From Escherichia phage Pu-Krd-SF1, in sequence record PQ249395: 64,000 nucleotides of DNA. The stretch is one strand, 5' to 3'. Positions 5,414 through 5,536 of this stretch are shown one piece after another. Position numbers and translations under genes: made by a program. The notes beneath the pieces were generated by a model. The model was not told where the DNA came from, searched no databases, and saw nothing but the letters and a program-made list of their open reading frames with translations. How positions within the stretch are numbered: the stretch's first letter is position 1; every line of letters starts with the position of its first letter.

Positions 5414-5443
5414 AGGGAGAGCCGAGGCTCTCCCTTTTTATTT
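5414..5443 (+). terminator. rho-independent terminator
   Basis: GGGAGAGCC-GAG-GCTCTCCC followed by TTTTTATTT. Confidence 0.7.
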
Positions 5444-5464
5444 CAAAAATTTTTTCACAAAACG

Positions 5465-5497
5465 GTTTACAACCAAAGCATACTGTGGTACTATACA
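5465..5497 (+). promoter_or_regulatory. early promoter upstream of motA
   Basis: GTTTAC ... TGTGGTACTATAC; part of a cassette repeated at 22625..22696. Confidence 0.55.
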
Positions 5498-5536
5498 ACT
5501 ATCAACTACTGATAACAGAATTACGGAGATTAGAAA

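Follow-up and report, generated by a model that had tools for sequence, protein, structure and literature searches.

Terminator-early promoter cassettes upstream of motA and frd.3 in a T4-like phage: a promoter family with invariant arms and discrete spacer types

The two cassettes and their genomic setting

The DNA analysed here, which we call the window, is a stretch of 64,000 nucleotides from Escherichia phage Pu-Krd-SF1 (PQ249395). It belongs to a Tequatrovirus and is about 97-100% identical to genomes of that genus; identity to T4, with which it is syntenic, is about 97%. Its orientation is the reverse of the standard T4 map, so that the early genes lie on the plus strand. Two sites in it carry a nearly identical intergenic block. 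At the first (copy A) the order is gene 52, motA.1, block, motA; at the second (copy B) it is a SegG-like open reading frame (ORF), gene 32, block, frd.3, frd.2. Genes were assigned from ORF lists, Pfam matches, and synteny with T4 and with the annotation of Pu-Krd-SF6 (Table 1). An earlier interpretation made from the letters alone (the sequence-only reading) had named motA and gene 32 as the neighbours of the block; the ORFs and their matches to Pfam MotA_activ, MotCF and gp32 bear out both gene calls. Hundreds of Tequatrovirus genomes match the 1.4-kb blocks around the two sites at 95-100% identity, the Pu-Krd-SF phages being nearest.

Set against its closest relatives, the window is a mosaic: the motA region (4800-6200) is 100% identical to SF3/SF4 and 98.4% identical to SF5-7, whereas the gene 32 region (22000-23400) is 100% identical to SF5-7 and 97.6% identical to SF3/SF4. 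Far from both sites, at 59347-59922, stand two tandem 288-nt units that are 77% identical to each other; from their position, these could correspond to the immunoglobulin-like domain repeats of hoc.

Table 1. Features of the two cassettes, their neighbouring genes and related elements, in coordinates of the window
Feature	Position	Strand	Composition	Basis or value
Early promoter, third and partial family member	1825-1863	+	Right arm (1846-1863) and following AACTAC identical to copy A	
motA.1, last gene of upstream transcription unit gene 52-motA.1	5260-5409	+	49-aa ORF	ORF list; T4 and Pu-Krd-SF6 synteny
Terminator A	5414-5439	+	Hairpin AGGGAGAGCC-GA-GGCTCTCCCT (5414-5435), then T-run	9 pairs, 6 GC; -18 kcal/mol, z -4.6
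UP-element-like tract of promoter A	5440-5464	+	A/T-rich, ATTTCAAAAATTTTTTCACAAAACG; with the -35 element, the left arm	Alignment
-35 element of motA early promoter	5465-5470	+	GTTTAC	-35 signal annotated at same place in T4 record Z48569
Spacer of promoter A	5471-5485	+	Variable 14-nt core ACCAAAGCATACTG (5472-5485), motA-type	Alignments
Right arm of promoter A	5486-5503	+	TGGTACTATACAACTATC: TGn 5486-5488, -10 TACTAT 5489-5494, start region	-10 annotated in Z48569
motA leader 5' hairpin	5500-5514	+	TATCA-ACTAC-TGATA	Fold; Shine-Dalgarno GGAG 5525-5528, motA ATG 5537
motA, activator of middle transcription, driven by promoter A	5537-6172	+		Pfam MotA_activ 4.5e-61, MotCF 6.5e-64
SegG-like homing endonuclease ORF, upstream of gene 32	20996-21628			ORF list; synteny
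Gene 32, single-stranded-DNA-binding protein, last gene before cassette B	21683-22588	+		Pfam gp32 2.3e-66; synteny
Terminator B (gene 32 terminator)	22611-22634	+	GGGGACC-TCTAG-GGTCCCC (22611-22629), then T-run	Terminator scan; 8 pairs, -15.2 kcal/mol
Left arm of promoter B	22635-22664	+	A/T-rich UP-like tract (22635-22658) and -35 GTTTAC (22659-22664)	Alignment
Spacer core of promoter B	22666-22679	+	ACCAAAGCATAATG, motA-type allele; 13/14 vs copy A	Alignment
Right arm of promoter B	22680-22697	+	TGGTACTATACAACTATC: TGn, -10 TACTAT 22683-22688, start region	Sequence
frd.3 leader 5' hairpin	22694-22713	+	TATCGGCA-ATAC-TGCTGATA	Fold; Shine-Dalgarno GAGG 22720-22723, frd.3 ATG 22732
frd.3, first gene under promoter B	22732-22959	+		Pfam Phage_FRD3 4.3e-32
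More distant cassette of same architecture	39335-39416	+	GGACTCC-TTCG-GGAGTCC, T-run, GTTTAC promoter	-23.5 kcal/mol

Each block lies, as the sequence-only reading had it, directly behind a strong GC-rich hairpin with its T-run. Terminator scans returned two hits at A (one site in two registers) and one at B, where 0.2 would be expected in shuffled sequences, and both hairpins stand about 30 nt upstream of the -35 element. The features of an intrinsic terminator are present at both sites: a GC-rich hairpin, an immediate T-run, and a place at the end of a transcription unit. In phage G9062 the orthologous place of terminator A is annotated as a terminator, and so is the site of terminator B; among six T4-like genomes, five retain a terminator after gene 32 (PMC1524935). 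We regard both hairpins as predicted rho-independent terminators, whose activity the T4 literature and the annotation suggest.

Hairpin B has the position, the stem (GGGGACC/GGTCCCC) and the T-run of the gene 32 terminator of T4, but its loop, TCTAG at 22618-22622, is the reverse complement of the CTAGA found in T4. The window shares TCTAG with UFV-AREG1, RB14 and NBEco003, and T4 shares CTAGA with T6, G9062, slur08, SH-1 and F13076. At terminator A the loop (5424-5425) is GA in the window and in T4 and TC in G9062. These reverse-complement loops between relatives look as if the entire hairpin had been inverted through exchange between its own arms. Two other families of near-identical terminator hairpins, GGGCTTCGGCCC and GGGACCGAAAGGTCCC, are scattered through the window (931-968, 1142-1185, 40186-40241; 46947-46993, 62061-62107, 63419-63465).

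Downstream of each hairpin the sequence has every element of a T4 early promoter: the GTTTAC hexamer, an UP-like tract before it, TGn, TAnnnT, and a place on the early strand. The string TTTACA-17 nt-TACTAT, preceded by TG at the -10 element, occupies 5466-5494 and 22660-22688. The early promoters of T4 have been described as combining UP, -35, TGn and -10 elements, with further conserved regions (PMC2988021), and orthology with T4 suggests that promoters A and B are active immediately early (PMC2988021). Transcription from promoter A would start near 5501. Each of the two transcripts is predicted to have a small hairpin at its very 5' end, formed around a shared TATC...GATA, the stem at B being the longer (8 pairs); in RB14 and F13076 three nucleotides are inserted beside the B leader hairpin. 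These leader hairpins may serve as structures that stabilise the 5' end.

The near-identity that the sequence-only reading placed upstream of motA and downstream of gene 32, over a block of about 70 nt, is real and was correctly located. Measured from CCCTTTTT, with which the hairpin ends, as far as CAACTATC, copy A (5432-5503) has 72 nt and copy B (22627-22697) 71 nt, and the two agree in 68 of 72 aligned columns, the differences being three substitutions and one 1-nt indel. A weaker similarity runs on into the 5' UTR (ACTnCTGATAA). The hairpin sequences are unrelated to each other, and the homology must therefore start at the 3' edge of the stem.

As a control for promoter consensus, the 12 GTTTAC-N18-TAnnnT promoters on the plus strand of the window were aligned on their -35 elements. 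Copies A and B are identical at 55 of 60 ungapped positions, where a profile built position by position from the other ten promoters gives an expectation of 29.6 (Poisson-binomial P ~1.4e-13); the next-best pair in the same alignment shares 46. Within the 14-nt spacer, which lies outside any promoter consensus, 13 of 14 positions agree, against a mean of 4.6 over all promoter pairs. The 20-mer TTTCACAAAACNGTTTACAA occurs in the window only at A and B, even when three mismatches are allowed (0.1 expected). In other words, the similarity of the two copies goes well beyond the promoter consensus, and the pairwise alignment that the sequence-only reading had proposed as a check does not confine the identity to the -35 and -10 elements. 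An assembly artefact was considered as the source of the repeat and ruled out, the same blocks being present in hundreds of independent genomes.

Invariant arms and discrete spacers in a promoter family

A search for further copies upheld the repeat but not the idea that A and B form a special pair, for they are members of a T4 promoter family that numbers five or seven, depending on which part is counted. The 28-nt left arm, AAAAATTTTTTCACAAAAC(G/T)GTTTACA(A/T), is found with no more than two mismatches at five sites in T4, upstream of motA, frd.3, imm.1, nrdC.10 and e.8. The 18-nt right arm, TGGTACTATACAACTATC, is found at seven; the two added sites, upstream of nrdC.8 and ndd.6, are without the left arm and lie at 53.9 kb and 167.05 kb of T4. 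When the five T4 members and the two window copies are aligned arm by arm and spacer by spacer, both arms are invariant and the 14-nt spacers fall into discrete types: ACCAAAGCATACTG at the motA promoter, AGCATAAAGCTTTA at the T4 frd.3 and nrdC.10 promoters, TCCTTGTTCTTCCA at the e.8 promoter and AGACTGTTCTTCCA at the imm.1 promoter. In T4 the cassette that nearly equals that of frd.3 belongs to nrdC.10, 91 kb away, rather than to motA; all three of these T4 cassettes have a T-run after a terminator hairpin.

The window holds three exact copies of the right arm, at 1846, 5486 and 22680. The first belongs to a partial family member (1825-1863 in Table 1) whose spacer and upstream part differ from those of copy A and which is without a canonical terminator hairpin. 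This copy lies within the ndd/denB region, where PeSL-linked gene exchange between T4 and PST has been described (PMC4122927). Altogether 13 GTTTAC promoters can be counted on the plus strand of the window, and only those at 5465, 22659 and 39380 lie directly behind a terminator hairpin, the last of them in the more distant cassette listed in Table 1.

The left-arm core, TTTCACAAAACTGTTTACAA, recurs in a distant Serratia phage Muldoon-like contig of 167,547 bp in IMG/VR, where two copies stand 743 nt apart with a single ORF between them. With two copies flanking an ORF in so distant a phage, the motif is old and has been reused as a cassette boundary, and because the core recurs there, part of the conservation of the arms, and of the similarity between A and B, is functional constraint and not recent exchange. 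Scanning IMG/VR with the 20-mer TTTCACAAAACNGTTTACAA gave 18 stretches in a few contigs; these matches are too few for a population survey, and GenBank phage records were used for that purpose.

Another two early promoters of the window, at 33531-33584 and 46619-46672, are 98% identical over 54 nt and have different upstream parts; the identity spans GTTTAC and the leader, up to the Shine-Dalgarno sequence. This is probably the alc/alt pair that the sequence-only reading had mentioned.

Spacer alleles at the frd.3 promoter

Alleles at copy B were counted in about 500 Tequatrovirus records, with 50-nt BLAST queries that reach from the spacer into the frd.3-specific leader, and were sorted by coverage class. 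Three spacers are found at this one promoter. The motA-type is carried by 62 records, about 12% of the sequenced relatives (examples are the window itself, Pu-Krd-SF3-7, RB14, UFV-AREG1, JB75 and NBEco003); the nrdC.10-type is carried by 68, T4 among them; and the e.8-type, the majority form, is carried by 336, including T6 and G9062. Some 35 records fall outside all three classes. The 12 genomes that we read base by base agree with the classes, and among the sequences read there are no intermediates. The near-identity of A and B, which had made them appear a special pair, is accordingly one allele at copy B, that of the 12% just mentioned.

The copy-B alleles differ from one another over a patch of some 15-25 nt, which lies between the arms. 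In RB14 copy B equals copy A from TTTTTTCAC through CAACTATC, with a spacer match of 14/14, and in NBEco003 copy B is one base off copy A over that same stretch (GTGATAC instead of GTGGTAC). In T4 and T6 the -37 base (G/T) agrees with the type of the donor spacer. The end of gene 32, its hairpin and the frd.3 leader are copy-B-specific in all alleles, and since these flanks are constant, the change is one of a patch and not a rearrangement.

The same constancy bears on the idea that cassette B is a recent duplicate of A, inserted downstream of gene 32. Such a duplication would explain the high identity from the T-run through the start site. It does not fit the 11 of 12 relatives read whose terminator-promoter cassette at this place has a hairpin and a leader of its own, nor the fact that only the spacer, and sometimes the -37 base, varies while the hairpins of A and B are unrelated. 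We regard a recent duplication as highly implausible.

A different possibility is that A and B are alike only through selection for the same optimal early promoter, with no exchange between them. The consensus of T4 early promoters does extend well past the -35 and -10 elements (PMC2988021), the left arm is near-invariant in five T4 promoters, and its core is present in the distant Muldoon-like phage. The spacer, however, is outside that consensus and varies freely within the family, and yet 13 of its 14 positions are shared in the window and all 14 in RB14. Convergence also has no ready place for three discrete forms at copy B, each of them the spacer of a different paralogue and with no intermediates among the sequences read, or for a match with P ~1e-13 against the family profile. 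As the whole explanation, functional convergence seems to us quite improbable.

We think it likely that these are composite terminator-early promoter cassettes of a small promoter family, in which the spacer has been exchanged by patch gene conversion between dispersed copies. The anatomy of the cassettes, the family structure and the three alleles at copy B can be read directly from the aligned genomes. That conversion is the mechanism, and which way it ran, is what the pattern of alleles suggests: ectopic short-patch conversion is favoured because independent mutation cannot make three 14-nt strings that each equal the spacer of a paralogue. The query counts speak to direction. The motA-type query matched 914 places in 499 records and the nrdC.10-type query 948 places in 502, with a second match in most records. 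This fits the view that the motA and nrdC.10 loci keep their own spacer whatever copy B carries, in which case copy B would be the recipient. The e.8-type query, that of the majority form at copy B, found a second copy in only about half of the records, and for this allele the transfer may have run either way.

The proposal runs as follows. A rho-independent terminator would end the upstream unit, gene 52-motA.1 at A and gene 32 at B, and its A/T-rich tail would lead straight into a very strong sigma-70 early promoter; this promoter would start a new immediate-early transcript, that of motA at A or of frd.3 and the frd genes at B, and the cassette would insulate the neighbouring transcription units. 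The arms would be conserved largely by function, and they would also provide homology with which the recombination machinery of T4, which is very active, could copy short patches. In the lineage of the window the spacer of the frd.3 promoter would have been replaced by that of the motA promoter; the frd.3 promoter has the nrdC.10-type spacer in T4 and the e.8-type in T6 and most relatives. The allele counts would look no different if a few conversion events had later spread as phages recombined homologously in the ordinary way.

Beyond this, we put forward more tentatively, as a possibility that we would not yet favour, that this small family of T4 early promoters acts as a set of exchangeable modules, with the two arms doubling as homology and the 14-nt spacer open to swapping, and that the frd.3 promoter has repeatedly received ectopic patches from paralogues as far as 90 kb away, whence its three discrete alleles in natural Tequatrovirus populations. 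Such conversion might be promoted by double-strand breaks from SegG, the homing endonuclease encoded next door, which cuts in gene 32 (PMC2988022). The spacer alleles could tune promoter strength. If conversion at the frd.3 promoter is indeed recurrent, populations of T-even phages would directly testify to ectopic recombination of PeSL-type cassettes, and by a non-crossover route that has so far gone undescribed.

Rearrangement, exchange and the known promoter cassettes

The sequence-only reading had offered the two blocks as direct repeats, 17 kb apart, that could support deletion or duplication, and had linked them to the promoter-early stem-loop (PeSL) modules proposed to shuffle T4-type genomes. 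On the first point the evidence runs the other way: the signature is one of short-patch conversion and not of crossover, and no deletion or duplication between A and B was seen, the gene order being the same in T4, SF6 and G9062. On breakpoints the outcome differs between the sites. Copy A lies at an insertion/deletion junction, whereas copy B is without any change of gene content in the genomes inspected.

At copy A the match to the block ends right after CAACTATCAA in about one-third of the records. Between promoter A and motA, G9062 (NC_054920) has an additional 75-aa ORF that has an early promoter of its own, and both promoters are followed by the same 23-nt leader, CTATCAAATAAATGAACTGAAAC. 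An extra ORF of this kind is a promoter-plus-ORFan cassette bounded by direct repeats, a layout known from the PeSL papers. At copy B the cassette is flanked by gene 32 and frd.3 in 11 of the 12 genomes read, with gene content unchanged. In the twelfth, vB_EcoM_11B_SA_NWU (OR062527), about 95 nt are absent, so that the stop codon of gene 32 is missing together with the terminator and the UP/-35 part, and the gene 32 reading frame continues into the remaining half of the promoter; this gap is either a real deletion that ends inside the cassette or an assembly error.

Crossover shuffling of the PeSL type would make A and B linkers for deletion, duplication or excision as circles of the 17-kb interval between them. 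The two form a near-perfect direct repeat of about 60 nt, T4 recombination works on short homologies, mini-circles between nearby PeSLs have been demonstrated in RB49/phi1 (PMC2839356), and copy A adjoins the insertion or deletion of one ORF in about one-third of relatives. The interval, however, contains genes that T4 cannot lose, and a deletion from A to B, which would remove asiA, t, the tail-fibre genes 34-38, 33, 59 and 32, is very unlikely to be viable; so is a 17-kb duplication, which we expect to exceed the headful size and its margin. The A-B gene order is unchanged in all genomes inspected, and the boundary of the extra ORF at copy A is formed not by copy B but by a separate second promoter close by. 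We consider crossover between A and B improbable as the source of the pattern, and continue to favour conversion of the spacer.

Several parts of this picture are familiar. The gene 32 terminator and the early promoters of motA and frd.3 are textbook features of T4 and already known. The modularity of arms and spacers and the three-allele pattern at frd.3 are a refinement that we did not find in the literature searched, a modest new detail; a search for gene conversion between T4 early promoters, with published promoter and PeSL lists lying outside its scope, found nothing relevant. As we interpret it, the three-allele pattern shows cleanly, in a natural lytic phage, how regulatory repeats can convert one another ectopically over short patches, and it gives independent support to the view of promoter-terminator cassettes as recombination linkers. 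For those who meet near-identical promoter blocks in other T4-like genomes, it would be well to check the whole family before calling a duplication or a rearrangement scar. PeSL-like cassettes, for their part, can be recognised by reading the sequence without tools.

The closest known system is that of the PeSL cassettes of T4-like phages, described by Arbiol et al. 2010 (PMC2839356) and Comeau et al. 2014 (PMC4122927). In T4 and PST the stem-loop immediately precedes a TTTACW-N17-TAYWAT promoter, and a Shine-Dalgarno sequence with a start codon comes after the promoter (PMC4122927). Copies A and B have this structure: a promoter, an upstream stem-loop, an A/T-rich tract, and a Shine-Dalgarno sequence with its start codon. 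They share with PeSLs an intergenic terminator-like stem-loop joined to a strong early promoter, and the conserved parts of PeSLs have been proposed as recombination homology. Copy A also borders an ORF insertion/deletion among relatives. The repetition of an intergenic motif, another mark of PeSLs, is seen in the five left arms and seven right arms of T4. Of an association with hyperplastic regions and ORFans the one sign is the insertion/deletion at A, and both copies adjoin core genes (motA and gene 32), unlike the ORFans flanked by PeSLs in a hyperplastic region. A and B are also 17 kb apart, a distance at which the mini-circle route would be without viable products, and short-patch conversion of spacers is not described in the PeSL papers (PMC2839356, PMC4122927). 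The interpretation of the blocks as PeSL modules stands, then, for their architecture, which matches the T4/PST elements, and in part for breakpoints, since A lies at an insertion/deletion junction among relatives; in the genomes inspected B is no gene-content breakpoint. Modular shuffling likewise survives in part, as exchange of sequence between cassettes, for which the copy-B alleles supply population evidence, and not as rearrangement by crossover, of which none was seen.

A second parallel is found at the internal-protein loci of T-even phages, where early-promoter repeats with adjacent stem-loops have been tied to shuffling (Repoila et al. 1994, in PMC2839356). Those elements, like A and B, combine T4-type early-promoter repeats with neighbouring stem-loops, but their stem-loops are weak and A/T-rich and accompany variable ip genes, whereas the hairpins of A and B are strong GC-rich terminators beside conserved genes. 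The early promoters of T4 (Pe) themselves, reviewed in PMC2988021 and with their consensus discussed in PMC1524935, have GTTTAC at -36 to -31, an A-rich UP-like tract at about -40 to -44, a GT-rich TGn and TAnnnT. From these A and B show no difference in kind; they are the orthologues of two T4 promoters.
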